DNA of 64,000 bases from a virus. Every line of letters starts with the position of its first letter. Position 1 is the stretch's first letter. Below are positions 9,579 through 62,891 of this stretch, piece after piece. The position numbers and the translations under genes were made by a program. The notes under the pieces are model-generated. The model had not been told where the DNA came from, searched no databases, and saw nothing but the letters and a program-made list of their open reading frames with translations. The DNA lies in IMG/VR virus record IMGVR_UViG_3300034683_000092, positions 1 through 64,000 of that record, one strand, 5' to 3'.

Positions 9579-9651
9579 TGTGAATAAATAGAATTGAACT
9601 ATTGACACAAGGATTTTCAGTCCTTTGCTCTACCAACTGAGCTATATTCAC
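9579..9651 (-). tRNA. tRNA-Phe(GAA)
   Basis: Cloverleaf GTGAATA/TATTCAC, D arm GCTC..GAGC, anticodon loop CTGAAAA, T arm AATAG-TTCAATT-CTATT. Confidence 0.92.
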
Positions 9652-9660
9652 ATTTAATAG

Positions 9661-9732
9661 TTGCGAGAGGTGGAATCGAACCACCGACCATTAGGATATG
9701 AGCCTAATAAGCTACCTCTGCTCTATCTCGCA
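9661..9732 (-). tRNA. tRNA-Met(CAT), initiator-like
   Basis: TGCGAGA/TCTCGCA acceptor, A11:U24 pair, anticodon loop CTCATAT, GGTGG-TTCGATT-CCACC T arm. Confidence 0.9.
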
Positions 9733-31784: not shown

Positions 31785-31856
31785 GCTCAAATGGTGTAAC
31801 GGTTAGCACGCATGGCTTATATCCATGAAATCTAGGTTCAATTCCTATTTTGAGTA
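31785..31856 (+). tRNA. tRNA-Ile(TAT)
   Basis: GCTCAAA/TTTGAGT acceptor, GTGT/GCAC D stem, CATGG-CTTATAT-CCATG anticodon arm, TAGG-TTCAATT-CCTA. Confidence 0.85.
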
Positions 31857-34009: not shown

Positions 34010-34113
34010 GGAGAAGTGGCGGAATTGGTATACAGCAGTAGATTGACGGAAGCACCCTAAAGTCGTCGTAAATAATTAGCTTGGGTTTGCAGGTTCGACT
34101 CCTGCCTTCTCCC
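34010..34113 (+). ncRNA. tRNA-like RNA: Leu-type acceptor, D and T arms with a non-canonical expanded centre
   Basis: GGAGAAG/CTTCTCC, TGGCGGAATTGGTATAC, GCAGG-TTCGACT-CCTGC; no 5-bp/7-nt anticodon arm. Confidence 0.7.
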
Positions 34114-43171: not shown

Positions 43172-44359
43172 ATGATTGAAGAAGTCATACAAAATCTATA
43201 TGAAAAGCGTGCTAGAATACTAGATGGTAAGACTAACTGTATACCATGCCCATTTATGCGATTTAGAGAAGTGTGGCCTGGCATAGAAAGGAAGAAATAC
43301 TATATAGTAACTGGTCAGCAGAAGTCTGGGAAGACTCAATTTACAGATTATACATTTTTATACGAACCGCTTAAATACGCATACAGAAATCCAGATAAAG
43401 TCAGGGTTAAAATATTCTATTTCAGCCTAGAGATGAGTGCTGAGGAGAAACTACAGCAGTTAATATCTCATTTGCTATATATAAAAAGCAAAGGAGCAAC
43501 AGTTGTGTCTCCAACAGATCTTAGATCTACTAGAGAGGATAAGCCAGTGGAAAAAGAGATTCTTGATGAGATTTCAAAACCAGAATATATGAATTTCATG
43601 AAATTCTTTGAAGAGCATGTAACAATTATCTCTGATATTAGAAATCCAACTGGCATTTACAAGTTTATGGAAAACTATGCAAAGAACTCTGGTACTATTT
43701 TTAAAAAAGAATTAGAAATAGTCAATTCGTCTACTAAAGAGAGGATTACTCAATCAGTATTTTCTCATTATGTGCCAAACGATGAAGACGAATATGTTAT
43801 TTGTATTGTAGACCATATATCTTTATTATCTCAAGAAACTGGATTGTCGCTACACGAGACAATAAGTAAATTGTCGGCAGATTACTTTGTTAAACTAAGG
43901 AATTACTACTCTTTTATACCAGTAGTCGTTCAACAGCAAGCAATTGCTGGTGAATCAGACCAAAATGTAAAAGATAATAGGTTATTTCCAACGGTTAGCA
44001 ATCTTGCGGAAAATAAATTGACAAGTCGCGACGCCAATAGCATGTTTGGACTTTATTCTCCATTTAGACATAACATAGCAAAACATGAGGGATATGACAT
44101 CTCTGTATTTAGAGATAATATACGATTTATGGAGCTTATGATAAGTAGAGATGGTGGAGCTGGTTCAGTATGCCCTTTATTTTTTAATGGAGCAGTCAAT
44201 TACTTCGCAGAGATGCCAAGAGTTGACAACAAACAAGAGTTAGACAAAATGTATAAACTTACTGATCATTATAGAAAAAAGATCAGAGTTAATTTATTTA
44301 ATTATTTTTTAAAAACAAAGAAACGAAATGGGAGTATCAGTAGCAATCGTAGGCCCTAG
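43172..44359 (+). CDS. dnaB: DnaB-like replicative helicase
   Basis: GQQKSGKT, YFSLEMS, IVDHISLL, VVQQQ and SRDG motifs. Confidence 0.85.
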   Translation: MIEEVIQNLYEKRARILDGKTNCIPCPFMRFREVWPGIERKKYYIVTGQQKSGKTQFTDYTFLYEPLKYAYRNPDKVRVKIFYFSLEMSAEEKLQQLISHLLYIKSKGATVVSPTDLRSTREDKPVEKEILDEISKPEYMNFMKFFEEHVTIISDIRNPTGIYKFMENYAKNSGTIFKKELEIVNSSTKERITQSVFSHYVPNDEDEYVICIVDHISLLSQETGLSLHETISKLSADYFVKLRNYYSFIPVVVQQQAIAGESDQNVKDNRLFPTVSNLAENKLTSRDANSMFGLYSPFRHNIAKHEGYDISVFRDNIRFMELMISRDGGAGSVCPLFFNGAVNYFAEMPRVDNKQELDKMYKLTDHYRKKIRVNLFNYFLKTKKRNGSISSNRRP

Positions 44360-45317
44360 TGGCGGTGGTAAAACGACGAGTCACATGATTAATGTAGATG
44401 GGACAGTGGATTTAAATCCAGAAAAATACACTGGAATGAATCCTAAAACTCATTTTATAATAAACACAGACTGCAAGCAATTGCCTTTGCCACCACACCT
44501 GTGGAATAGAAAGAACAAGAATTATACAGAAACCAAAGAATTGGAAGATATTAGAAAAGTCTTTCAGTATGTAGCCAAGAACCCAGATATAAAATCTATT
44601 TCATTAGATACTTTAAATGTTTATTTAGCATATAAAGAGTATAATGATAGAAAAAAGCTTACATTTGATCAGTAAACTAAAGTTTTAACATTTTTAATAA
44701 ATTTGTAAACGCTGCTGATCTAAAACTCCGTTAAACAGGGAAACTCTTGTAATATAGACAATCCTGTGCTAAACCTTTTAGAAATAAAAGAAAATGCCAA
44801 ACGACTAGGAATGATGCTTAACAAGTAATGTTGAAGCTATAAAATTTCCCACGAAAGCGGGGCACTGCTTATTTTTTTTTTAATAAGCTAAAGATATAGT
44901 CTGAGCTATATGGTGACATATAGAAGCACGAGATAAAGAGCTTGTGCGATAACAAATGGGCGTGATGTAGCCAATGATATTCTTGAAATAATCGACATGT
45001 GCAATAACGTGTTAAGAGAAGATCAAATTGGATATATATTTTGTCACACGAACATACAAACTGATGTTGATGGTGCTGATAAAAGAGTTATTGCTGTTTT
45101 AGGTAAAAAGTCGGTTTCCAGACCTCCAGAAGCATTCTTTCCAATTGTTTTAATGACAACTGTTGAAGATGACGGAGATGGAGAACCTCGCTTTTTCTTT
45201 GAAACAAAAATGAATCGTAGTACTGCAAAAACTCCACTTGGGATGTTTAATGAATTTAGAATTCCAAATTCATTAGCTTTAGTAGATAAAGCCATTAGAG
45301 ATTATCATAAGATCTAA
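44328..45317 (+). CDS. AAA-family P-loop ATPase (Sak4/AAA_24-like); exons 44328-44673 and 44959-45317, 234 aa spliced
   Basis: GPSGGGKTT, ISLDT, FDQ/WRDVA junction, CHT, AKTPLGMF...IPN.L. Confidence 0.85.
44674..44958 (+). mobile_element. Group I intron (285 nt, no ORF)
   Basis: P1 GATCAGT/GCTGATC with U-G, AACGACTA and AAGATATAGTCTGAGC (P7 and J8/7), terminal G; removal restores the TGG codon and frame. Confidence 0.93.
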
Positions 45318-46520: not shown

Positions 46521-47492
46521 ATGATTAAAGCTAATCTATCAGAAGTTTCTTTAGAAGATATAGCTCATATTGATCAAGTAGAATTAGCACGTAGGTATCT
46601 TGGTATATCCAAGATGCCTATTGTTATTTCTTCTCCATTTAGAGAAGATAAACATCCGTCTTTTTCTATTAGATATAAAAATGGAGTAGTTCAATTTATG
46701 GATTTTGCAACAAATGATTATGGTAACATATACACATTGCTTTGCAAGATGTGGAATTGTTCTTTTAAAGAAGCTATATCTAAAATCTATTATGATTATG
46801 CATGTAATAACTACAGCAAAATAAATGGATTTAAAAAGCCTATAATAGACAAAGAATCTGTATTCCAATCGCAAATAGATGTAAAAGTAAGAGCTTTTGA
46901 GGATTATGATTTAGAGTTTTGGGGCAAATACGGTATAAGCAAAGAATGGTTAGTTTTTGGAGATGTATATGCAATATCACATATATTTATTAAAAAAAGC
47001 GATAAAGAGTACTCTTTTTTAGCTGATAAATATGCTTACGTTTATATAGAGCGCAAAGACAATATTGTGTCTAAAAAGATATATCAGCCTTATAATGATA
47101 GATATAAGTGGATTAATAAATCAGATGCATCTGTTTGGGACTTATTTGCTAAACTACCATTCTATGGCGATAAGCTTATTATTACTTCGTCACGAAAAGA
47201 CGCTTTAAATTTATGGAGTAACTTAGCAATCCCAGCAACATCCTTGCAGGGAGAAGGGTTTATTCCAAAAGAAAAAGTTATCAACGAATTGAAGCATAGG
47301 TTTAAAAGAATATATGTTTTATACGATAATGACGAAGCTGGTATTATTAACTCAAAAAAGATATGTGATAAATATGATTTAGAAAACATAATGATTCCAT
47401 TGGAAGAGTTATCTAAAGACCCTAGTGATTTATATAAAAACACTGGTGAAAGAAATTACTTATCAGTATTTAAAAAAATATTAAACATTTAA
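46521..47492 (+). CDS. dnaG: DNA primase (DnaG-like TOPRIM)
   Basis: SPFREDKHPSF, IITSSRKD, YDNDEAG and KDPSD motifs. Confidence 0.88.
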   Translation: MIKANLSEVSLEDIAHIDQVELARRYLGISKMPIVISSPFREDKHPSFSIRYKNGVVQFMDFATNDYGNIYTLLCKMWNCSFKEAISKIYYDYACNNYSKINGFKKPIIDKESVFQSQIDVKVRAFEDYDLEFWGKYGISKEWLVFGDVYAISHIFIKKSDKEYSFLADKYAYVYIERKDNIVSKKIYQPYNDRYKWINKSDASVWDLFAKLPFYGDKLIITSSRKDALNLWSNLAIPATSLQGEGFIPKEKVINELKHRFKRIYVLYDNDEAGIINSKKICDKYDLENIMIPLEELSKDPSDLYKNTGERNYLSVFKKILNI

Positions 47493-47494
47493 AT

Positions 47495-48385
47495 ATGAAT
47501 TTTGATTCTTTTTATTCAATTTATCAAAAATATGATGATATAAACGCAAAAGAATATCCAACACCGTCTAATCCTAAGTCGAGGATACAACACAGATGGT
47601 GTTTTTCTCCGCTATTTAACAAAAGCACTGAATCTTTTAAATCCATACAAGTTATTAAGATATGGATGACCAGTAAAGATGTTAGTAATGAAATCGAAGG
47701 TAAAGATATTGACCCGTATAATAGGATGATGTCAAATGAATCTCATAAAGTTTTAATAACAGAAGAAGAACTTCGTAACTACATCAATAATGTATCTCTT
47801 CTTTTTAATGTTGAAATGACATTAGATACTATCGATGATTCAGAATGGGTGGTATCTATCTTTACGAAAGGATCTACTGACGTTGGAAGGATAAAAACTG
47901 TTATGACTTTTGTTCGATACGCTTATGAGTTCTCTTTTAATTACATATTGGCATTATTATATGGATCTATTGACTTAGGTATATTTAGTAAGGATGAAGA
48001 CTTCTTTGCTTTATTGTTCTTCTTTAGTGTTACAGAGCATAGCAATGACAATCATGCTTTTGCTGGAAATAGTGACATATTGTATACTAATCCTGCAATA
48101 TTAAATGAACATATTGGAGAAACACGAATAGAAGGCGTATATTACTTTATGGAAAGAGCATCTATAAATGTTGATCGTTTATTATATGAAGATGGTGAGA
48201 AAGTTTGTGAAACAGTAAGAACCGAGTCTTATTTTAGAAATCTATTAAGCGAAGGAAGTGCTGAGTATTGTAGTGATCCAAATAAAAATGGAGTTTATGA
48301 TTATTTAAAAAACAACAAAGATCAAATAATTAAATTATATGAAAGTTATAAAAAACAGATTAAAGATCAGGTCCAAAAACCATAG
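47495..48385 (+). CDS. Hypothetical protein of the ligase cluster, paralog of 49138-49959
   Basis: CFS, K..MTFVRYAYE..FN.IL and H.F motifs shared. Confidence 0.7.
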   Translation: MNFDSFYSIYQKYDDINAKEYPTPSNPKSRIQHRWCFSPLFNKSTESFKSIQVIKIWMTSKDVSNEIEGKDIDPYNRMMSNESHKVLITEEELRNYINNVSLLFNVEMTLDTIDDSEWVVSIFTKGSTDVGRIKTVMTFVRYAYEFSFNYILALLYGSIDLGIFSKDEDFFALLFFFSVTEHSNDNHAFAGNSDILYTNPAILNEHIGETRIEGVYYFMERASINVDRLLYEDGEKVCETVRTESYFRNLLSEGSAEYCSDPNKNGVYDYLKNNKDQIIKLYESYKKQIKDQVQKP

Positions 48386-49145
48386 TGCAAAACTATTGGA
48401 TCGTTTAGAGTGTGACAAATTATCAGTGTTAAGACTTGGAAGCAAAACGCCAAATGACGTAGTCTTCGCAAATAGCAAACGCTACAAAAAAGGAGAAATC
48501 CCTTTTGAGATAAACACTGTTGAAGCATGCGTTAACTCTTCTAACAAGAGATTAATGAAGCAATGCTTTAACGAATTAGACGTAGCAACAGCGTTATGGT
48601 GCGATTTAAGCGAGTTTATCGAAGGAGATGCTGAATTCTCTTATCCAATAGTAGTAAAGGGCATATACGGCTATAAAAACAAAGATAACTATTTTATCAA
48701 AGGCAAAGAAGAACTTGATGAATGGTTGAAAGTTGATAGAAAAATTGAAAACTATATAGTAGAGAAGTTCTACACCTACTCAAAAGAGTATAGAGTTCAT
48801 GTAGCTAAGGTTGGAGATGAATATAATGCTTTTTATAGTTTGCGTAAAATGCTTGTAAATGACATTCCTGATGAAGATAGGTGGTTTAGAAATGACGCAA
48901 ATTGCGTGTGGATTTTAGAGGACAACGAGCAATTTGATGCTCCTATAAATTGGGATAGCATCAAAGAGCAAGCTTGTAAGGCCATCGAGTCTGTTGGATT
49001 GTCAATGGGTTGTGTAGATGTAAAAACGCAATCACGCAAAGGTGAATGCGGATGCATTATATTAGAAACAAACTCTGCGCCAAGCCTTTCTGAGATAACT
49101 GCTGAAAAATATAACGAACAATTAAAATTGATGTTAAATGTATAG
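48339..49145 (+). CDS. ATP-grasp (RimK-like) ligase
   Basis: SSNKRLMK, YPIVVK, EYRVHV, GCVDV and ILETNSAP motifs. Confidence 0.88.
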   Translation: MKVIKNRLKIRSKNHSAKLLDRLECDKLSVLRLGSKTPNDVVFANSKRYKKGEIPFEINTVEACVNSSNKRLMKQCFNELDVATALWCDLSEFIEGDAEFSYPIVVKGIYGYKNKDNYFIKGKEELDEWLKVDRKIENYIVEKFYTYSKEYRVHVAKVGDEYNAFYSLRKMLVNDIPDEDRWFRNDANCVWILEDNEQFDAPINWDSIKEQACKAIESVGLSMGCVDVKTQSRKGECGCIILETNSAPSLSEITAEKYNEQLKLMLNV

Positions 49146-49959
49146 AGGGTATCAGTGTATATATAGTATAATAGAGACTACTGAAAAGGATTTTGATGTA
49201 GCTAATAGTGATAGCTATAAAAAGTTTATAGCATCAACAGTCCCATCTGGAACTATCCATGTGTGTTTTTCAAATATATTTGGAAGAAAATGCTTTGATT
49301 ACTTATTAATTAAAGCTTTCGCAAACCCTCAATACGCAATTCAGTCTGGAGGGTCAAATGTATGCGTATTAACAAAAGACGAAATTATGTTTTTTGTTGA
49401 CCAGATAAAAGAGCTTTACAAAGTGAACATTGAAATATTTTTTCACGAAAAGCATCAAACAAGAAATAAATTGTCTAAATATCCATTCTTTGTTATATCA
49501 TATAAATCATCTGACAATTTATTCATAGATAAAGTAGTACTAACGCTGCTGAGATATATGTTTGAAGAGCCATATAATCTTATTTTGAAAACTGTATTTT
49601 TAATGGCTGATGATGATTCTTTTAAAGATAACGATTTTTGGTTTAACTTCGAGACGGCTATAGGATGTTGTTATGGTGGAAGTGGGCACGGTTTTGTTTC
49701 TACATATGCAATACAACCTTTAAAATTGGATTTTAAAGAGAACAAAGAGTGTAGAGTAAATTCTATGGTTAAATATTGCGGAGAATCTGTAAGCAATAAC
49801 AAATCGATCGATTTCGCATCTATACCAGACGAGATATTGTATGAAGATAAAGATTATTCTTGCGGTTTGAAGTTCTTGAATTTATATGAAGAGAAAGTTA
49901 GGCCTTTATTATTAATTGTAAACGATATTAAAAAACAAAACTTAAATGAAAAAGTGTAA
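49138..49959 (+). CDS. Hypothetical protein of the ligase cluster, paralog of 47495-48385
   Basis: CFS, K..LTLLRYMFE..YN.IL and GHGF motifs. Confidence 0.7.
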   Translation: MYRGYQCIYSIIETTEKDFDVANSDSYKKFIASTVPSGTIHVCFSNIFGRKCFDYLLIKAFANPQYAIQSGGSNVCVLTKDEIMFFVDQIKELYKVNIEIFFHEKHQTRNKLSKYPFFVISYKSSDNLFIDKVVLTLLRYMFEEPYNLILKTVFLMADDDSFKDNDFWFNFETAIGCCYGGSGHGFVSTYAIQPLKLDFKENKECRVNSMVKYCGESVSNNKSIDFASIPDEILYEDKDYSCGLKFLNLYEEKVRPLLLIVNDIKKQNLNEKV

Positions 49960-50581
49960 TATTTTTGTTGTTGGAGGTAGCACTGGCTATGTTTCATGGA
50001 TTGAGAATGTTAATTTAGTAGACTCTCCTTTAAAGGCCGACATAGTATTCTTTACTGGAGGCGAGGACGTTAGTCCGTCACTATATGGAGAAGAATCTCA
50101 TAGAACAACATTCGCAAATAAGAAAAGAGATATTGTTGAAATGGAAGTTTTTAACCTTGTAAAAGACAATCCTGATATTCTTAAGCTTGGAGTTTGCAGG
50201 GGATCTCAATTCTTAACAGTAATGAATGGAGCAAAACTAGTTCAGAATGTCAATAACCATGCTATTTGGGGTGGTCACGACATAGATGTAGAGCATCCTG
50301 AATTCGTTGGTACTATAAAGATAACGTCTACGCATCACCAAATGCTAAGACCCTTTGTGTTGCCAGATGAAGAGTACGATTTAATAGCTGTGTCTTCCAC
50401 TAAAAGAAGTGATGTCTATCAAGGCGGAAATGGCGATATAGAAATGCCTTGTGAACCAGAAATTGTGTATTATAAAAAGACAAACAGTCTTTGTATTCAA
50501 GGGCATCCTGAAATGCTTCCTTTTGAATGCGAGACAAACGTTGTTTTGAGAAAGATTTTAAATTATTATATCAACAAGTAA
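49946..50581 (+). CDS. Class I glutamine amidotransferase / peptidase C26-like
   Basis: FTGGEDV.P..YG, GVCRGSQ, STHHQ and QGHPE (Cys-His-Glu triad). Confidence 0.9.
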   Translation: MKKCNIFVVGGSTGYVSWIENVNLVDSPLKADIVFFTGGEDVSPSLYGEESHRTTFANKKRDIVEMEVFNLVKDNPDILKLGVCRGSQFLTVMNGAKLVQNVNNHAIWGGHDIDVEHPEFVGTIKITSTHHQMLRPFVLPDEEYDLIAVSSTKRSDVYQGGNGDIEMPCEPEIVYYKKTNSLCIQGHPEMLPFECETNVVLRKILNYYINK

Positions 50582-50594
50582 TCAATTATCAATT

Positions 50595-51416
50595 ATGGAC
50601 AAGTTTATTAAAGTTCAAATGTTGGGTTCTGACCCAGAGTTTTTAATCAAAAATCAAAAAAGTAACAAATATATATCTTCTATCGGGATTATCCCTGGTA
50701 CAAAAGAGGAACCTCATAAAATTGAGGAGCTGGGCAAGGGTTACGCTATCGAGATAGATAACGTACTGGGGGAATTTAATATCCCACCTGCAAGTACAAA
50801 GGAGGAATTTGTTGCAAACATGAATAAGATGAAGTTATTTATTGATAAGTGGCTTAAATCTAAAGATGAAAATCTAATTGCAGTTCATTTAGCTTCTGCC
50901 AGATATGATGAAGATCAATTGCAATCAGAAGAAGCTAAGCTATTTGGTTGTGACCCAGATTTCTGTGCTTGGACGAGAAGTCAAAATGAAAAGCCAAAAG
51001 CGAAAGACACAAGACTTCGTTCAACAGGATGTCATATCCATGTATCTTTTGAAGATAAAGACATTGACAAGTGCGAAGTACTTGTTAAAGCAATGGATTT
51101 GTTTTTAGGAGTTCCATCCATACTAATGGATAAAGACAAAGATAGAAGACAACTCTATGGAAAAGCTGGATGTTTTAGAATTCAACAATATGGTGTTGAA
51201 TATAGGACTTTATCTGGGTTCTTCCTTGGCAGCGATGAGCTTATTGGATGGATGTTTGACAACACAATGGCAGCTATCGATTGGATAAATAGTGATTTGT
51301 CTGCTGCTAGAATTGCATTAGAAGAAAACAGAGAGGAAATAATCTCTGCAATCAACAATGGAGATGAAGAAAAAGCATCTTCATTAGTTCAGAAGTTCGG
51401 AATTAAATTAGTGTAA
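50595..51416 (+). CDS. phiEco32-like COOH-NH2 ligase (glutamine synthetase-like fold)
   Basis: GSDPEF, DNV.GEFNIPP, FGCDPD, RSTGCHIH, RRQLYGKAGCFR and GVEYRTLS motifs. Confidence 0.9.
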   Translation: MDKFIKVQMLGSDPEFLIKNQKSNKYISSIGIIPGTKEEPHKIEELGKGYAIEIDNVLGEFNIPPASTKEEFVANMNKMKLFIDKWLKSKDENLIAVHLASARYDEDQLQSEEAKLFGCDPDFCAWTRSQNEKPKAKDTRLRSTGCHIHVSFEDKDIDKCEVLVKAMDLFLGVPSILMDKDKDRRQLYGKAGCFRIQQYGVEYRTLSGFFLGSDELIGWMFDNTMAAIDWINSDLSAARIALEENREEIISAINNGDEEKASSLVQKFGIKLV

Positions 51417-51461
51417 AACATTACGGCCTGTTGAAATATACAGGCCGCAAAACTTAAAAAT

Positions 51462-53027
51462 ATGATTATAACAAACTTTATTATTTTAGCCGTATTGATT
51501 CATTCTATTATGGCATTCACACTTAAAGACAAAGTAAAATCAAACGCTTATTGTGGGCTGTTTGGATTCGTAGGAGGCGGTGGATTCGATCTGTTCAGAA
51601 TGTGTATTCTTGGCATTTATAATGACACAAGAGGCGGAGACTCAACAGGCGTATCCTTGGATGGCGTTCATTATGGATCTAAAGGTAATAAAAACAAGCT
51701 ATTTAGAGCTTTTATCGCTGAAGAGAATCCATTTGACGAGTTAGCAATGAGACCCAAGGTAGCATTAGGACATTGTAGAAAAGCTTCTGTTGGTGGAATT
51801 GGGGAAGCGCAAGCACAGCCAGTGTATATAAAAGAAGGTGACAAAGTGAAATTTGTTATGATTCATAATGGTACTTTAGTTAATTATAAAGAATTAGCTA
51901 AAAAGTACGAAGTAGAATATGAAGCCTCAGAAACGGATTCTCAGATATTTTGTAAAATAGTTTATAAAGCTGGATATAAAGTTCTTGGTGAATATATAGG
52001 CGCTGGAGCATTTGTGTTCCATGATCTTAGAATTAACAAGGTGTTTGCATTTAAAGGTAATAGTAAGATGTATAACAACTCTGCTAATACAGAGGATGAA
52101 AGGCCTTTTTATATTTTAAAATCTGGTGGTGGATATTATTTCTCATCAATAAAAGAGTCTTTAAGTGCTATTAGAAAAAACAATGATGGAGATGTAATGA
52201 CTATTAAAGTTAATACACTTACTGATTTGACTGGTGGTATTTTAGGTTATGCAAACACATACGATAGGGCTAATTTGCATCAGCTAGAATCCAAATATGG
52301 AATGTTTGACGACTACGGATGCAATACAGCTTTAATAAACAGGGGTGGAGGATACAATCCAAACAAAGAGGTTATTCTTACTTCAAAGTTAGAGCTAGAG
52401 GGAAATCATAAAAACACAGATTCATATATTACTCATGACGAAGATGGGTTTTATAATATTGGTGGAAAGCCTTTCACTGGAGCTATTTTGACAAGTACTG
52501 CTGGTTGGATTTATGACAGGAATGAAGGGTTTGGCAAATTGAATGGGCCTAAGTATAATGGAACTGTATTTGAGTCGTATTTCATGCGTGGAATAAAAAT
52601 GAATTCAAAAGTTGATTTTTACGCATGCAATTACTTTATTCGGAATTTTGTTGATAAATACGATTCGGATTTAAAGGATTTATCAGAGGAAGAAAAGCAA
52701 GATCTTTTTGGGACTATCTTAGCGTTCTCAAATACGTCAGTAAAAATAGGCGGATTGTTTAAAACAGTTAAAAAAGGTGATTTAATAAATGCTTCTACTG
52801 TCTATCTAGTTCCACTATTCCAGTCTGGGCTGGAAAAGCATTATTATATTCTTTCTGGTAAAGTATACTCTTATAAAAAGGCTTCGATTTCTCAAAAAGA
52901 TCTAATGAATACACCAAAGCATTCAATAGATGGAACGGCTGAATTAAATAAGATGTTAGAAAACAATAGTTCAGATAAAGAGCTTGAAGAATTTTATGTT
53001 AATTATATAAAACAAAATATAATATAA
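51462..53027 (+). CDS. Class II (Ntn) glutamine amidotransferase with N-terminal leader and C-terminal extension
   Basis: CGLFG, RGGDSTG, GHCRKAS, HNGT, TDSQ and ERP motifs. Confidence 0.88.
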   Translation: MIITNFIILAVLIHSIMAFTLKDKVKSNAYCGLFGFVGGGGFDLFRMCILGIYNDTRGGDSTGVSLDGVHYGSKGNKNKLFRAFIAEENPFDELAMRPKVALGHCRKASVGGIGEAQAQPVYIKEGDKVKFVMIHNGTLVNYKELAKKYEVEYEASETDSQIFCKIVYKAGYKVLGEYIGAGAFVFHDLRINKVFAFKGNSKMYNNSANTEDERPFYILKSGGGYYFSSIKESLSAIRKNNDGDVMTIKVNTLTDLTGGILGYANTYDRANLHQLESKYGMFDDYGCNTALINRGGGYNPNKEVILTSKLELEGNHKNTDSYITHDEDGFYNIGGKPFTGAILTSTAGWIYDRNEGFGKLNGPKYNGTVFESYFMRGIKMNSKVDFYACNYFIRNFVDKYDSDLKDLSEEEKQDLFGTILAFSNTSVKIGGLFKTVKKGDLINASTVYLVPLFQSGLEKHYYILSGKVYSYKKASISQKDLMNTPKHSIDGTAELNKMLENNSSDKELEEFYVNYIKQNII

Positions 53028-54439
53028 TGTTAGTAAAAACAATATCTAATAATGTAGTCGATAGAGCTGACTGCATCCAAATCAAAGATAAATTTTATCA
53101 AAAAGAAGTAGACTGTGTTAGACTCGAAGGAAAATGGTATTGGGTTAAAAGTCGAATGATTTATTTCAATGAAAGACTTGATAAATACAAGAAGGTGACT
53201 AACGATACTACTGACTTTTTTACTAAAAAAGATGGCGTTATTAAGATTGTAAGAGATGAATTGGAGCCTGGGGAGTCTGTTGAAGTTTCAATTAAAGGTT
53301 TTGGTGATGGAGTTGTATCTTCCAGGGACGAAGCCTTAAGGATGGATCTTGTTTATGATAATAGATGCGGTCGGTATGTAGACCCAACCTATTTTCGTGA
53401 AAGAGGACTAACTGTAAACTCCAAAGATGCTATAAAAACTGGTAAGAAGCTTTATGCAACTCTTCCAGAGAAATATAATTCATCTGACCTAATGGATAAG
53501 TTCAATGTGCCACAACGAGTAGCAAAATATAATCCAACGTCTTTTAATGTTCAAGAAAAACTTGGACTTGAATATTCATTTGGATTTGAGTTTGAAACCA
53601 GTGGTGGAAACATCCCATTAGAAGAGCTTTATAGAACTGGGTTAATGCCTTTAAGAGATGGGTCTATTTCTGGACACGAGTACACTACTATTCCATTAAT
53701 GGGGGATTTTGGTTTGTCTGTTTTAGAAAATCAGATAAATTTGCTAAATAAGTATACCATTATAGATAAAGAATGCTCAATGCATATCCATCTAGGTGGT
53801 TATCCAATTAGTGAAAAAGCCATTATGTCTGCTTATCTTATGGCGGTAAATCTAGAACATGAGATCGGAACGCTATTCCCTAGATATATATTTGAAACCC
53901 ATAACTACAAGGCAAAAGGCAAAGACTATTGCAAGCAGCTTTATGGTGCATCAAGTATAAATGACATCTATAAGATACTATCTGCTGGATATTATAAAAC
54001 ATTTGGTGGAGATTTCACTCTTAATCATCCAAGCGATTCAGGCGATCAGCAGAAATGGAATATAGAGTATCGTTATTACTGGTTTAATCTTATTAATATG
54101 ATGTTTAAAAATCATGGAAAGACGATTGAATTTAGAATCCATACTCCAACTCATAATGCAGATAAGATTTATGCATGGCTGCTAATAACATCTGCTATAT
54201 TGAAATATGCAGAGGAGAATATCCCAGAAGTGTTAGACAGAGATAAGGCTTATGACTTATCTTATATTATAAAGAAGTCTGGGTATCCTTTGGAATTGCA
54301 GACTATTTTATTGGAATATATAAATTGGAGAGAAAGCTTTTGCAAAGAGATGGATCGTGTTGGTGATTACGCTGGAATAAGTGAGATCATTAACGATTCT
54401 CAAGAGTTTGGGCTTCTTAAATATTTGAAATCATTATAA
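53027..54439 (+). CDS. Putative amidoligase (Amidoligase_2-like)
   Basis: FGFEFET, DGSI.G.EY.T, CSMHIH, RY...N and TIEFR motifs. Confidence 0.88.
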   Translation: MLVKTISNNVVDRADCIQIKDKFYQKEVDCVRLEGKWYWVKSRMIYFNERLDKYKKVTNDTTDFFTKKDGVIKIVRDELEPGESVEVSIKGFGDGVVSSRDEALRMDLVYDNRCGRYVDPTYFRERGLTVNSKDAIKTGKKLYATLPEKYNSSDLMDKFNVPQRVAKYNPTSFNVQEKLGLEYSFGFEFETSGGNIPLEELYRTGLMPLRDGSISGHEYTTIPLMGDFGLSVLENQINLLNKYTIIDKECSMHIHLGGYPISEKAIMSAYLMAVNLEHEIGTLFPRYIFETHNYKAKGKDYCKQLYGASSINDIYKILSAGYYKTFGGDFTLNHPSDSGDQQKWNIEYRYYWFNLINMMFKNHGKTIEFRIHTPTHNADKIYAWLLITSAILKYAEENIPEVLDRDKAYDLSYIIKKSGYPLELQTILLEYINWRESFCKEMDRVGDYAGISEIINDSQEFGLLKYLKSL

Positions 54440-56162: not shown

Positions 56163-56654
56163 ATGATAATACTACTAATAATTACAATTTGCTTATGGGT
56201 TTGGTTATGCTTTTCAGTTTTGCCAATTAAGAAAAAACAAATCAATTTAATATCTTCAAACAAAAAAGAAGACGATCTGTTATTACCGATCATAGATATT
56301 GAGATAGCTGGAATAAAAACAAAAGCTATAATTGACACAGGTTCTTCTTTGAATATAATCAATAAGCATTTTGCGATGAAGAATAATTTATTTGTTGATT
56401 ATGCAAAAGAAAAAGAAGTAGACAGCTTTTTAACAGCGCAAGGAGAGACATCTACAGATGGTGTTTTGGCTTGTCAAACTGTTATAAACAATGATTTTAT
56501 GAGAGATCTTGAATTCGTTGTTTATGACATGCAAAGAGCTATGGACGCTATCAGCGAGTCAATAAACAGCGAGGTGTCTATAATACTTGGTGTTGAAGCT
56601 ATTAAGAAATTTAATATAACTATTAAAATGAATGAAGGAGTTATTATTTTATAA
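56163..56654 (+). CDS. Retropepsin-like aspartic protease with N-terminal membrane anchor
   Basis: AIIDTGSS and IILG motifs; hydrophobic N-terminus. Confidence 0.82.
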   Translation: MIILLIITICLWVWLCFSVLPIKKKQINLISSNKKEDDLLLPIIDIEIAGIKTKAIIDTGSSLNIINKHFAMKNNLFVDYAKEKEVDSFLTAQGETSTDGVLACQTVINNDFMRDLEFVVYDMQRAMDAISESINSEVSIILGVEAIKKFNITIKMNEGVIIL

Positions 56655-58032
56655 CGCTAGAATTGATAATCAAGGATTAGCGATTTGTGTTTCAAATAAA
56701 GATAAAGTTGTTAAATTCACGATCAATGAGAATCAAAATGATATAAATGGTATTGTGAGTTTGTTCTCAAGCGACAGATATATATTTGTGGGATTCGGAA
56801 ATCAAAGACTTGAAAATCCATGGATAAATTCATTGATAGCTAACTATTCAATGATTGTAAAAGAGAATCTATCATTTCCTCAAATAATTGAGGAGATGGA
56901 TAGGCTCTCTAGAGAAATAGAACATGGAGAAGTCCCTGAAGAAAAGTATATGAGGTTTTTTGAATACATAGATTTATCTTGCACTGAGAAGTTTAAAGAC
57001 TTTAATAAGGGAGTTTTAGATCAAGCTGAAGAGTTGAAAGTTATACAAAGGATGTATATTGAATCTAAAAACTATATTAGTTTTGCTAATTATATAAAAA
57101 ACAAATATAGACTGGCAGATATAAATATGCATCCGCACAAACTTATTCAAGCTGCTTTAATAAATTTCATTGCCGTAGAAACGTTTAGCACTGTATCTGA
57201 AACATACAGGCGTATTAAGAAGATCAAGCCATTGCCTCGAATGATAGAATGCTTGGTCAACCCGCCAATGAGAGAGTCATTAAGAAAAATGCTAGAGGTT
57301 AGGGCTGCCAATATACGCATTGGTAGTTATGAAATTTATACGAGCAATTCAGTAATAAGATATTGCAAAGGATCTTTTAAGCTAGACGAGGAGTCGGATG
57401 ACATTGTCGTTCAATTAGATGTGAATAGATTCTATCCATCTATTGTTGTCAATAATGAAATCTACCCGTGGTCGTGCGGAGATTATTTCATAAAGGCTTT
57501 TAAAGAGCTCTACGACGAGATCTCTTCGCCAGCGTGTTATGGCAACAAAGATGGATATAAGCTTCTTAAAACAGGCTTAAATTCAATCTGCGGGAGCATT
57601 GGCAATGGACAGAGTATCTTATTTGACGAAGTAGCTAGAAAAGCGATCATTGATTTCTCAAAGAAATACATATTATCATTAGTTGATATGATACTATTCA
57701 ATGATTTTGATGTTATAGCTATTAATACTGATGCAGTATTTATACGTGTTAATAAAAACAAATTAGAGCTATTAAAGAAGTGCATTAAAATTTGGGAGTC
57801 AAAATCAAAATTATCATTAAAGATAAAAGAGTATTCTTTTTTCGTTATGAGGAATGAATGCGAATACATTGGTCTTTCAGATGATGATTTTGAATATGAG
57901 ATTAAAGGAAATTTGTTTAATGATAAAGATGTATTTGATTACTTCGTTAACAAATGCAAACCCAATCAAAAGAATAAAGCTCTAATGAAGTTTTTAAATA
58001 GTTTAAACCCTAAACAATTAAGTTTATTTTGA
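56632..58032 (+). CDS. Family B DNA polymerase-like protein, shortened and degenerate
   Basis: LDVNRFYPS, K..LNSICG and INTDAV match PolB motifs A, B and C with substitutions. Confidence 0.75.
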   Translation: MKELLFYNARIDNQGLAICVSNKDKVVKFTINENQNDINGIVSLFSSDRYIFVGFGNQRLENPWINSLIANYSMIVKENLSFPQIIEEMDRLSREIEHGEVPEEKYMRFFEYIDLSCTEKFKDFNKGVLDQAEELKVIQRMYIESKNYISFANYIKNKYRLADINMHPHKLIQAALINFIAVETFSTVSETYRRIKKIKPLPRMIECLVNPPMRESLRKMLEVRAANIRIGSYEIYTSNSVIRYCKGSFKLDEESDDIVVQLDVNRFYPSIVVNNEIYPWSCGDYFIKAFKELYDEISSPACYGNKDGYKLLKTGLNSICGSIGNGQSILFDEVARKAIIDFSKKYILSLVDMILFNDFDVIAINTDAVFIRVNKNKLELLKKCIKIWESKSKLSLKIKEYSFFVMRNECEYIGLSDDDFEYEIKGNLFNDKDVFDYFVNKCKPNQKNKALMKFLNSLNPKQLSLF

Positions 58033-58200: not shown

Positions 58201-58806
58201 ATGGAAAATAATATATTTATATTTAGTGACCCGCATTTTGGTCATAAAAATATAGTAAGATCAGTATCTTCTTGGGATGATAAGTCTGGATGTAGAGATT
58301 TTAATTCCATTGAAGAAATGAATGAAACAATTGTAAAAAACATAAATAGCACTGTTTCTGAAAACGACTTTCTGTTTTGTTTAGGTGATTGGTCTTTTGG
58401 AGGTCAAGCTAATATTTCTAAATACAGAAATATGATAAACGTAAAAGAAATAAGTTTAATACCAGGAAATCACGACGACAAATTGGTAAGTCTAATAAGG
58501 ACAGATCCATTAGTTAGATCGTCATTTGTCTTATGTAGAGATATAACTATATTTAAATGTCATGGATGCATATTTGTTTTGTCTCACATGCCAGTAAGAG
58601 ATGACATTGTTGATAAGCTATTAAATGGTAGAAATATCGACAATACGCCTATTATATTAATTAATGGGCATCTTCATGGGAGTAAATATCCTGATAACGG
58701 ATTTAAACGATATTTCAGGCTAGACGCATCAATTGAAACTAATAATTATCTTCCTTACAATATTCTTGATATAATTAAACTATACAATGAGTCAGAGTAT
58801 ATTTAA
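58201..58806 (+). CDS. Calcineurin-like metallophosphoesterase
   Basis: SDPHFGH, LGD, GNHD, SHMP and GHLH motifs. Confidence 0.9.
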   Translation: MENNIFIFSDPHFGHKNIVRSVSSWDDKSGCRDFNSIEEMNETIVKNINSTVSENDFLFCLGDWSFGGQANISKYRNMINVKEISLIPGNHDDKLVSLIRTDPLVRSSFVLCRDITIFKCHGCIFVLSHMPVRDDIVDKLLNGRNIDNTPIILINGHLHGSKYPDNGFKRYFRLDASIETNNYLPYNILDIIKLYNESEYI

Positions 58807-60057: not shown

Positions 60058-60924
60058 ATGAAACTAGAAAAAGCTAGTTATGAAATATGGGATGAGAAAA
60101 TCCCATTATATGACCACATAGAAAGATGCGGTAGAATTTGCTACGCTAGTGAGCCTATTGGCGGAGAAAAAGCAATTGAGTTTTGCAATAGATTAATTAA
60201 GTCTGGTCATTTAAGCGTTTTAGAGCATGGTACAATTTATTTATCAATGAATTCTGAAACAGAAGAGAGTTTAAAATATGATGAAAATCCATATTCTGAA
60301 TACTACGACAACGATGAGTTTGAGCTTGGGCAAGCGTGTATAGTGACTAATTTAAGAGTTCTTATTGAGAATAGATGGATGGATGATTTGCAATATGCAT
60401 GCGAGCCAACACCATATCATGATAAAAGGATAACAGTCAAATGGAATGTAAACAGAGCCATAGCAAATGAAATAGTAAGGCACAGAAAATTTAGCTTTAG
60501 CCAGCAAAGTACTCGCTATTGCAATTTTTCCAAAGATAAATTTGGCAATGAGCTAACGTTTATTATCCCAAGTTGGATTGATGAGAATATAATAATCAAA
60601 GAGTTTGGTTCATTAAACGGGTTGTCATATCATAAAGACATCGATAGATTTCAGAAGTCAGAATGCGCAAATGAATCTAACTTTTTGCAAGGCATAGCAT
60701 TTTCTGAAGCTAACTATTTGACTCTTCTTAAAAACGGATTAAAGCCAGAGCAAGCAAGAGATGTATTGCCTTTGGCTTTAAAAACAGAGCTTGTGATGAC
60801 TGGGTTTGCTCATGATTGGGCTGCATTCTTTAAATTAAGATGCGATAATCATGCGCATCCAGACGTTAGACAATTAGCGATTAAATTAAGAGATGACTTT
60901 TATAAAAAGGGGTATATAGTATGA
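60058..60924 (+). CDS. thyX: Flavin-dependent thymidylate synthase
   Basis: GH.SVLEH, EIVRHRKFSFSQQSTRY, EQAR.VLP and LR....AHP motifs. Confidence 0.95.
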   Translation: MKLEKASYEIWDEKIPLYDHIERCGRICYASEPIGGEKAIEFCNRLIKSGHLSVLEHGTIYLSMNSETEESLKYDENPYSEYYDNDEFELGQACIVTNLRVLIENRWMDDLQYACEPTPYHDKRITVKWNVNRAIANEIVRHRKFSFSQQSTRYCNFSKDKFGNELTFIIPSWIDENIIIKEFGSLNGLSYHKDIDRFQKSECANESNFLQGIAFSEANYLTLLKNGLKPEQARDVLPLALKTELVMTGFAHDWAAFFKLRCDNHAHPDVRQLAIKLRDDFYKKGYIV

Positions 60925-62186: not shown

Positions 62187-62891
62187 ATGGAAGAGATTAT
62201 TAAAATTTGTGCGTTTAGCGATTTCCATGGAGATTTACCTAATATAGAACCATGCGATTTAGTTATTATAGCTGGTGATATTATACCGTTTAATATACAG
62301 CATAAGAACAATGATTCAAATGAATGGATTAGAACAGTGTTTACGGATTGGTGTAATAGCATCGACTGTAAATATATAGTTGCTATACCTGGCAATCACG
62401 ATAGATGGGCTGAGGGTATTACTAAGACTAAAATGAATAAGTTATTAAGTGGAATAAGCAATATATATATGCTTAGAAATGAATTCTTAGAGTTAGACGT
62501 TTTAGATTCAGGTCATGATTTGAAGATTTTTGGGACTCCATATTGCGCTAGGTACGGCAATTGGCCTTTTATGAGAGAAGATAAAGTGCTTAAAAAGAAG
62601 TTCGCAGAAATACCAGATGGATTAGATATTTTGATAACGCATGACCCTCCAAATGGATTAAGCGATTGTGATTATTCAAAATACGACGGTCAACATTTGG
62701 GGTCTGTAGCTTTAACTGATAGAATAGAAGACCTAGACAAGTTTGGTAAAAAGCCACGGCTTATTATTTGCGGACATATACACGAAGGGTCTAGAAAATT
62801 TGAGAATGGCATAATTAATGTAGCTATGTTGAATAGACATTGCAATGCTATAATAAATAATCCGAAATATATGTATTTTGTGTATGGATAA
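62187..62891 (+). CDS. Metallophosphoesterase
   Basis: SDFHG, AGD, GNHD, THDPP and GHIH motifs. Confidence 0.9.
   Translation: MEEIIKICAFSDFHGDLPNIEPCDLVIIAGDIIPFNIQHKNNDSNEWIRTVFTDWCNSIDCKYIVAIPGNHDRWAEGITKTKMNKLLSGISNIYMLRNEFLELDVLDSGHDLKIFGTPYCARYGNWPFMREDKVLKKKFAEIPDGLDILITHDPPNGLSDCDYSKYDGQHLGSVALTDRIEDLDKFGKKPRLIICGHIHEGSRKFENGIINVAMLNRHCNAIINNPKYMYFVYG

Follow-up and report, generated by a model that had tools for sequence, protein, structure and literature searches.

Seven co-directional open reading frames (ORFs) at positions 47495-54439 on the plus strand of IMG/VR virus record IMGVR_UViG_3300034683_000092 very probably represent the crAss-like version of the amidoligase cassette of phiEco32/LUZ24-type phages. 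The stretch analyzed, here called the window, comprises positions 1 to 64,000 of that record, which is a single virus contig of 96,583 bases with a completeness estimated by CheckV at 95%. The assignment is based on Pfam and PHROG matches for five of the seven genes, on the presence of the same gene set beside the primase gene in phages cr108_1, PaP3, and SU10, on the co-occurrence of the four other recognizable enzymes with the COOH-NH2 ligase in 76 to 83 of 86 ligase loci, and on the literature, in which the cassette is named. New here are the definition of the family formed by the two remaining genes (the A family, with the copies A and A'), its linkage to the gene of the C26 hydrolase, and a compact subtype of the cassette, carried by crAss-like and larger phages. 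The elements of the block are as follows (GATase, glutamine amidotransferase; Ntn, N-terminal nucleophile).

47495-48385, plus strand: A, first copy of the A family (296 aa; no Pfam or PHROG match)
48339-49145, plus strand: RimK-like ATP-grasp carboxylate-amine ligase (268 aa; PF02222/PF08443, phrog_2599)
49138-49959, plus strand: A', second copy of the A family (273 aa; no Pfam or PHROG match)
49946-50581, plus strand: class I GATase-fold Cys hydrolase of the peptidase C26/PuuD branch, by profile (211 aa; PF07722, phrog_7218)
50595-51416, plus strand: phiEco32-type COOH-NH2 ligase, a GCS2-like carboxylate-amine ligase (273 aa; PF14395, phrog_3815)
51421-51450, listed on the minus strand by the terminator scan: G+C-rich hairpin with an 11-bp stem in the gap between the ligase and class II GATase genes
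51462-53027, plus strand: class II (Ntn) GATase-type hydrolase, GATase II (521 aa; PF13522)
51462-51551, plus strand: 30-codon leader before nucleophile Cys31 of GATase II (in translation about 21 hydrophobic residues, then a Lys-rich part)
53027-54439, plus strand: Amidoligase_2, a glutamine-synthetase (GS)-like ligase (470 aa; PF12224, phrog_2443)

Gene content, distribution, and active sites

The original prediction, made from the letters of the sequence, had described a seven-gene block between primase and nucleases, and all seven ORFs were found there, overlapping or nearly abutting. Overlaps amount to 47 nucleotides (nt) between the A and ATP-grasp genes, 8 nt between the ATP-grasp gene and A', 14 nt between A' and the C26 gene, and 1 nt between the GATase II and amidoligase genes; the gaps between the C26 and ligase genes and between the ligase and GATase II genes measure 13 and 45 nt. 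The primase gene (PF01807/Toprim, phrog_12622) ends at 47492, 2 nt before A, and after a gap of 1 nt the block is followed, from 54441, by a DUF1064/Holliday-junction-resolvase-like gene and then by a PD-(D/E)XK exonuclease gene. The 45-nt gap, the sole sizeable one in the block, holds the hairpin, which on the plus strand is not followed by a T run. A sigma-70 promoter scan was uninformative (74 sites versus 74.7 expected). The description of the block as an inserted island proved misleading: its place beside the primase or primase/helicase gene is conserved in cr108_1, PaP3, and SU10, so that the block is to be regarded as a resident part of the replication-phase genes.

The distribution of the cassette was assessed with the COOH-NH2 ligase as bait. 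With tblastn, the ligase retrieved 319 GenBank phage records, many of them annotated 'COOH.NH2 ligase', from phages of Pseudomonas (121), Escherichia (94), Vibrio, Aeromonas, Proteus, Cronobacter, and other hosts, and a ligase alignment retrieved 171 confirmed stretches from IMG/VR. For co-occurrence, 80 IMG/VR loci fetched with the ligase alignment were taken together with cr108_1, PaP3, and SU10, and their ORFs were called and clustered. Of 86 ligase loci, 76 also had the C26 GATase, 83 had GATase II, 81 had the amidoligase, and 78 had the ATP-grasp ligase; in this gene-neighborhood survey, which the original prediction had proposed, the genes were thus found to travel together as a unit. 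In most loci the cassette is flanked by replication genes (DnaB-like helicase, family A polymerase, and primase/helicase clusters). The common layout is C26-[variable ORF]-ligase-[protein of ~200 aa]-amidoligase-GATase II-ATP-grasp, whereas here and in crAss-like relatives the order is ATP-grasp-A family-C26-ligase-GATase II-amidoligase and the amidoligase carries an N-terminal extension of 180 to 290 aa. A gamma-glutamylcyclotransferase (GGCT, PF06094) is frequent but not universal.

The protein of ~200 aa between ligase and amidoligase belongs to a second unnamed family (clusters 9 and 10, with a mutual hhalign probability of 99%), which occurs in 47 loci (for example, L035:9750-10358 and L061:1328-1939), has no Pfam match, and is absent from this phage. 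That it might correspond to the N-terminal extension of the amidoligase studied here was considered and rejected, as there was no hhalign support. At locus L055 (contig of 165,893 bases), a single ligase gene and a single amidoligase gene are surrounded by three separate class II GATase-like genes, and neither a C26 nor an ATP-grasp gene was detected.

In the literature, the same gene set is given for the LUZ24-like phage UFV-P2 (PMC3890496) and for TC6/PA11 (PMC6209634). A 'putative peptidoglycan modification module', credited to Iyer et al. 2009, is named in one paper (PMC11945000), and cell wall modification and prevention of superinfection, credited to the same source, are suggested in another (PMC10580990); both leave the function still to be explored. 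The earlier statement that such neighborhoods had been predicted in phiEco32-like phages and that no product had been determined thus agrees with papers up to 2025, which either call the function unknown or repeat the cell wall prediction of 2009.

Thirty window ORFs (the seven cassette genes and 23 neighbors) were scanned with Pfam and PHROGs, and catalytic residues were read from family alignments of homologues on viral contigs, in which invariant or near-invariant columns were checked. All family-invariant catalytic residues are present in all five enzymes, in line with the intact motifs reported earlier. The ATP-grasp ligase (PF02222, 2.6e-5; phrog_2599, 2.8e-21; PF08443 also matched) has an intact Mg-ATP site, consisting of K70, E150, R152, K170, D227, E243, and N245, all invariant in the family. 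With a profile of 49 family members, the best PDB matches were RimK/alpha-L-glutamate ligases (7qys, 3.3e-19; 4iwx, 1.5e-15), followed by cyanophycin synthetase, Ddl, GshAB, and LysX. In the COOH-NH2 ligase (PF14395, 9.1e-11, 41.9 bits with a cutoff of 25; phrog_3815, 5e-74), the conserved residues E15, E60, H147, H149, E202, and R204 are present. The amidoligase, for which the Pfam match covers residues 241-391 (PF12224, 2.7e-6, 27.9 bits with a cutoff of 22; phrog_2443, 1.4e-16), keeps the invariant ExE, HxH, and ExR residues E188, E190, D211, H253, H255, E368, and R370. Its N-terminal extension of ~180 aa, modeled with confidence for residues 1-50 only, had no Pfam match at E ≤ 1 and no clear fold match, with zinc-ribbon-like rows at Z ≤ 3.

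The C26 enzyme (PF07722, 2.7e-13; phrog_7218, 2.4e-36) has the triad C84, H187, and E189, each at least 90% conserved, and a conserved HHQ motif (H130-H131-Q132). In the PDB, its family profile was nearest to Lin1909 (3fij, 5e-29) and then to PuuD (6vtv, 1e-15), which by profile places it in the stand-alone gamma-glutamyl-amide hydrolase branch (PuuD/C26) and not among ammonia-channelling subunits. The original prediction had counted two glutaminases; given this placement, an ammonia-donating role need not apply to the class I enzyme.

GATase II matches PF13522 (6e-13), PF13537, and, weakly, PF13230 (YafJ/EgtC-like, 1.7e-4). The nearest PDB sequence is PurF (4e-6), limited to the N-terminal glutaminase domain. 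Cys31 is conserved, and the glutamine-site residues R57, N136-G137, and D159, which are invariant among 43 homologues, are present. The C-terminal ~280 aa had no Pfam match at E ≤ 1 and no conserved column among 38 homologues, so that no fixed synthase domain is apparent.

The nucleophile Cys of GATase II is residue 31 of the ORF, and no start codon adjoins it. In the alignment it corresponds to mature Cys1 of Bacillus subtilis PurF, a protein made with a propeptide that is later removed. Leaders similar in character but different in sequence were found on GATase II at loci L010, L013, L027, and L075; 58 of 85 homologues start with Met-Cys, i.e., without a leader. The GATase II studied here may thus be a processed, possibly membrane-tethered proenzyme (zymogen). 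No signal or membrane segment was seen when the translations of the other six cassette proteins were inspected.

Members of the A family and their place beside the C26 gene

A and A' resemble each other weakly in pairwise comparison (BLASTP E value of 9e-5, 25% identity over 108 aa), but an iterative hidden Markov model (HMM) seeded with A' recovered A at an E value of 9e-81, so that by profile the two are firmly placed as paralogues of one unnamed family. The HMM converged on ten proteins, among them A, both hypothetical proteins at the same place in cr108_1, and ORFs of L009-L011 and L039, and A matches the A-family profile at an E value of 5.6e-25. Word-based protein searches with A and A' returned only relatives that were at least 79% identical, whereas an exhaustive profile search revealed the family: against 1.84 billion cluster representatives, the profile matched 284 at E ≤ 1e-3 and 67 at E ≤ 1e-10. 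Members are mostly 230 to 270 aa long, and ten sampled clusters consisted of metagenomic, unnamed sequences only. Neither A nor A' matched Pfam or PHROGs, and none of 145 family members had a credible Pfam match. Searches of the ESM Atlas with A and with a typical family member gave nothing usable.

In the alignment of these 145 sequences, R139 is the sole invariant residue, and C43, F44, E143, and H184 are at least 90% conserved (A' numbering); the motif around R139 in the largest subfamily reads roughly HK[YF]xLTWxRYxYE[FY]P[YF]N. The paralogy and the shared motifs of A and A' that had been noticed earlier match the near-invariant C43-F44, R139..E143, and H184. The conserved polar pattern suggests an enzyme or a tight ligand-binding subunit and not a passive substrate. 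The original prediction had regarded A and A' as candidate novel enzymes or substrates; as candidate enzymes they gain from the 284 representatives and the near-invariant Cys, Arg, Glu, and His, and as substrates they are unlikely.

The AlphaFold2 model of A' is a confident alpha/beta structure (pLDDT 82.5, pTM 0.85). Foldseek, which had been proposed for both proteins, was run on this model and gave no PDB match at E ≤ 1e-3. Upon comparison with structures by VIA-align, the best score (Z = 4.6, tandem KH domains) was within noise (Z < 5), and the longest alignments, with PafA (Z = 3.8, 156 residues, root-mean-square deviation of 4.2) and Dop (Z = 3.6, 162 residues), were also at the noise level of the tool. 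In BFVD, the model matched uncharacterized cr108_1 and ctelJ1 paralogues (E values of ~1e-7) and, weakly, proteins of Pseudomonas phage tf and Proteus phage 3H10_20 (E values of ~0.2). Judged from this model, the A-family fold is best called unassigned rather than new. The possibility that A and A' are degenerate COOH-NH2 ligases or amidoligases was rejected at the sequence level (hhalign probability of ≤0.3%). For the two hypothetical proteins encoded upstream of the ligase in PaP3 and SU10, similarity to the A family was not detectable; in that comparison, only proteins of L026, L024, L071/72, and L020 joined the A family (probability of 44 to 97%).

The genomic linkage of the family was assessed in IMG/VR with a 12-sequence alignment of one subfamily of the A family, a bait independent of the ligase. 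In all 14 confirmed loci, the A-family gene lies directly upstream of the C26 gene. The order A family-C26-ligase-GATase II-amidoligase was found in 12 of the 14; the remaining two cassettes are cut off by the end of their contig. The ATP-grasp gene is directly upstream of the A-family gene, as it is here, in three of these loci; ten have no recognizable ATP-grasp gene nearby, nine of them on contigs of 128 to 176 kb. When the ligase-bait and A-bait sets were taken together, 24 of 26 loci had an A-family gene immediately next to the C26 gene. In the window, it is A' that overlaps the start of the C26 gene, and A is an extra copy across the ATP-grasp gene; two A-family copies are also present in cr108_1 and in a second crAss-like virus in BFVD. 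The linkage between the A family and C26 defines a cassette subtype ordered (ATP-grasp)-A-C26-ligase-GATase II-amidoligase.

Loci L088-L097 (IMG/VR, mostly 128 to 176 kb) carry the A family-C26-ligase-GATase II-amidoligase operon without a recognizable ATP-grasp gene nearby, and in L088 and L093 some cassette genes appear to be split into two ORFs.

It is conceivable, although we regard it as doubtful, that the A-family proteins are enzymes of a new kind, with Cys, His, Glu, and Arg in the active site and a fold for which there is no clear solved relative, that they work with the C26 enzyme, and that their cassette subtype, in crAss-like phages and on contigs of up to 175 kb, makes a product differing from that of the phiEco32/LUZ24 type, possibly on a host-specific macromolecule.

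Proposed chemistry of the cassette

We favor a glutamate-type amide pathway, in which a glutamyl group would be added to a molecule, the molecule worked on, and the group then removed or amidated. The three ATP-dependent ligases (the RimK-like ATP-grasp, GCS2-like COOH-NH2, and GS-like amidoligase enzymes) would each form an amide via an acyl-phosphate, most likely with glutamate or a gamma-glutamyl group. The two Cys-nucleophile hydrolases (PuuD/C26 and Ntn) would cut gamma-glutamyl amides again or would free ammonia from glutamine to amidate a carboxylate. The A-family protein encoded beside the C26 gene would be a sixth component, probably catalytic or specificity-giving, with A as an extra copy. 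The cassette would be transcribed with the replication genes, and all products would be cytoplasmic. With a probability of roughly 40%, the acceptor would be a soluble small amine or short peptide (glutathione-like or gamma-glutamyl-amine-like, possibly a cell wall stem-peptide precursor) and not DNA. We infer every chemical step, and the acceptor, from sequence relationships.

The pathway is favored because the closest characterized relatives of the ATP-grasp ligase and of the two hydrolases act on amide bonds of Glu or Gln, by forming or by cleaving them, and because the pairing of ligases with hydrolases recalls schemes in which a gamma-glutamyl group is added and removed. Such pairs are PuuA/PuuD (GS-fold and C26 enzymes), EgtA/EgtC (GCS-type and Ntn enzymes), and BtrJ/BtrG (ATP-grasp and GGCT enzymes). 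Glutamate-type chemistry is further suggested by the glutamine/gamma-glutamyl-binding residues kept in GATase II and by the position of the GGCT gene, which in 18 of the 26 loci that have both is at most two genes away from the ATP-grasp gene.

Several points weigh against this pathway or its proposed acceptor. The chief argument is that the A family, the C terminus of GATase II, and the N terminus of the amidoligase evolve fast, which fits a host-specific macromolecule better than a universal small metabolite. The closest relatives of the ATP-grasp ligase by profile include RimK and LysX, which act on protein C termini, and the constant place beside replication genes would be equally expected of a pathway directed at DNA or nucleotides. 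The 'remove' step is not uniform, since a PF06094 search for GGCT in this 95%-complete genome returned nothing at E ≤ 1. In profile searches of PDB sequences, neither the amidoligase nor the COOH-NH2 ligase had a solved relative from which its substrate could be read. The chemistry is read throughout from distant family resemblance; no copy of the cassette has been assigned a product, a substrate, or a phenotype. The original prediction was right about the kind of system but is unproven in its particulars: the peptide product, superinfection exclusion, protein tagging, and signaling that it had suggested remain guesses, which nothing in the analysis shows.

The cell wall prediction of 2009, attributed to Iyer et al. 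in PMC11945000 and PMC10580990, would have the ligases add or amidate stem-peptide residues of peptidoglycan precursors, e.g., at gamma-D-Glu or meso-diaminopimelate carboxylates, comparable to MurT/GatD, so that the altered wall would exclude superinfecting phages or be prepared for lysis. Stem peptides hold gamma-glutamyl bonds and free carboxylates, which would suit the enzyme classes of the cassette, and the membrane-anchor-like leader on several GATase II homologues, this one included, might bring a proenzyme near lipid-linked precursors. We nevertheless consider this unlikely: it is without experimental support in any phage, neither the other six proteins here nor the 58 of 85 GATase II homologues lacking a leader have such an anchor, and the cassette is co-located with replication genes and not with genes for lysis or early host takeover. 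Modification of a host or phage protein would agree with the fast-evolving accessory parts of the cassette and with the solved relatives nearest to the ATP-grasp ligase, given their action on protein C termini. The ligases would attach Glu or a short peptide (as a C-terminal or isopeptide tag, comparable to RimK on S6, LysX on LysW, or PafA/Dop with Pup), the hydrolases would mature or remove the tag, and the A family and accessory domains would recognize the target. GGACT-type (PF06094) cyclotransferases, which act on gamma-glutamyl-amine/isopeptide products, are frequent in the cassette, and the longest, albeit weak, structural alignments of A' are those with PafA and Dop. These alignments lie under the noise level of the tool, the A-family profile showed no similarity to the profiles of the two ligase families, and in the block no small conserved gene was seen that could encode a carrier or tag ending in an acidic C terminus; we think protein modification improbable.

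Hypermodification of DNA or nucleotides, in which a base or its precursor would receive an amino-acid-derived group that protects the phage genome from restriction, would explain why the cassette always lies among genes of replication and nucleotide metabolism. Amidoligase and amidotransferase domains have also been reported by Lee et al. as co-associated with thymidine-hypermodification genes on viral contigs (PMC8989533). We hold this to be very improbable, on a case that, as read from the sequence, consists of negative evidence only. The sole thymidylate synthase is of the ThyX type (60058-60924; PF02511, 3e-36), and searches of the 95%-complete genome with PF00303 for a ThyA-type dUMP hydroxymethylase and with PF01702 for a DpdA/TGT transglycosylase found nothing. 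The Pfam and PHROG scans showed no kinase or glycosylase-like gene within the block and named neither a 5-HMUDK kinase nor an aGPT-Pplase among the 30 window ORFs, although no search was aimed at these two. Among the acceptors considered, we retain the soluble amine or short peptide of the glutamate-type pathway as our preferred one.

Genome setting and known systems

The genome is that of a distant crAss-like phage, since the closest GenBank relative of the cassette is Crassvirales phage cr108_1; no near-identical DNA was found among GenBank phages. The G+C content of the window is ~30 to 36%, strand polarity changes near 26 kb, and giant ORFs of 3,816 and 2,154 aa lie on the remainder of the 96.6-kb contig. 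A complete group I intron (Rfam RF00028, 66.2 bits with a gathering threshold of 50, E value of 1.4e-14) is located at 44685-44923 on the plus strand, between ORFs 44328-44675 and 44997-45317. It probably splits an ATPase gene, since cr108_1 has a single ATPase gene, encoding 238 aa, where the intron and the two short ORFs lie. Downstream of the cassette, the family B DNA polymerase is encoded by a short ORF (56632-58032; 466 aa). The matches that cover most of it, the crAss-like records cr130_1 and Dulem virus 42, share only ~22% identity with it over 76% of its length, and no other polymerase turned up among the window ORFs scanned. Two calcineurin-like metallophosphoesterase genes (58201-58806 and 62187-62891) flank the thyX gene downstream of the polymerase gene. 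Four tRNA matches were found, at 9579-9651 and 9661-9732 on the minus strand and at 31785-31856 and 34010-34113 on the plus strand; the last, with 104 nt and 32.3 bits (gathering threshold of 29), may be an unusual or interrupted tRNA.

By itself, the locus adds a further copy to a cassette that is known but unsolved. Few multienzyme gene sets of lytic phages with a product still unknown are as widespread as this one, and with the crAss-like copy its range now includes abundant gut viruses that infect Bacteroidota-type hosts. The A family-C26-ligase-GATase II-amidoligase arrangement is a compact five- or six-gene version that biochemists could reconstitute. Once its product is solved, the question of 2009 would be settled between cell wall, proteins, metabolites, and DNA, and functions would follow for PF14395, PF12224, and the A family.

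Among characterized systems, PuuA/PuuD of Escherichia coli and Pau of Pseudomonas pair a GS-fold ligase with a C26 Cys hydrolase, as is found here; however, the ligase here is an Amidoligase_2 protein and not a member of the glutamine synthetase family PF00120, and it comes without oxidase or dehydrogenase genes. With RimK (the S6 glutamate ligase), LysX, glutathione synthetase/GshAB, cyanophycin synthetase, and Ddl, the ATP-grasp ligase of the block has its fold and the residues of the Mg-ATP site in common, but identity is low (E value of 3e-19 at best with the 49-sequence profile) and the protein here has just 268 aa. EgtA/EgtC and MurT/GatD each combine a carboxylate-amine ligase with a GATase-fold enzyme, EgtC (Ntn) removing the gamma-glutamyl group and GatD (class I) supplying ammonia. 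The likeness of the block to these two systems is one of analogy only, the sequence basis being the weak PF13230 match (1.7e-4) of GATase II.

Closer are the phage cassettes themselves. The phiEco32/LUZ24 (PaP3, tf)/PA11-type cassette, after which PF14395 is named ('Phage phiEco32-like COOH.NH2 ligase-type 2'), comprises the same five enzyme families and shares with the block its place beside the primase or primase/helicase gene. In PaP3 and SU10 (Kuravirus), the ligase, amidoligase, GATase II, ATP-grasp, and GGCT/YtfP-like genes lie just upstream of the primase/helicase gene, in the order [two unrelated hypotheticals]-ligase-[~200 aa]-amidoligase-GATase II ... ATP-grasp-GGCT, whereas the order here is (A)-ATP-grasp-A'-C26-ligase-GATase II-amidoligase. 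The phage studied here has neither GGCT nor the 200-aa gene of clusters 9 and 10, its amidoligase having the 180-aa N-terminal extension instead, and no A-family member could be detected in PaP3 or SU10. Closest of all is cr108_1 (MT774385, Steigviridae), in which gp_22632-gp_22626 are the same seven genes at the same place between primase and nucleases, with two A paralogues and a ligase that is 51% identical to the one here; in other respects the two phages are distant from each other. GATase II of cr108_1 starts with Met-Cys and has no leader, whereas that of the present phage carries one, and the A-family genes, which flank the ATP-grasp gene here, follow it in tandem in cr108_1.

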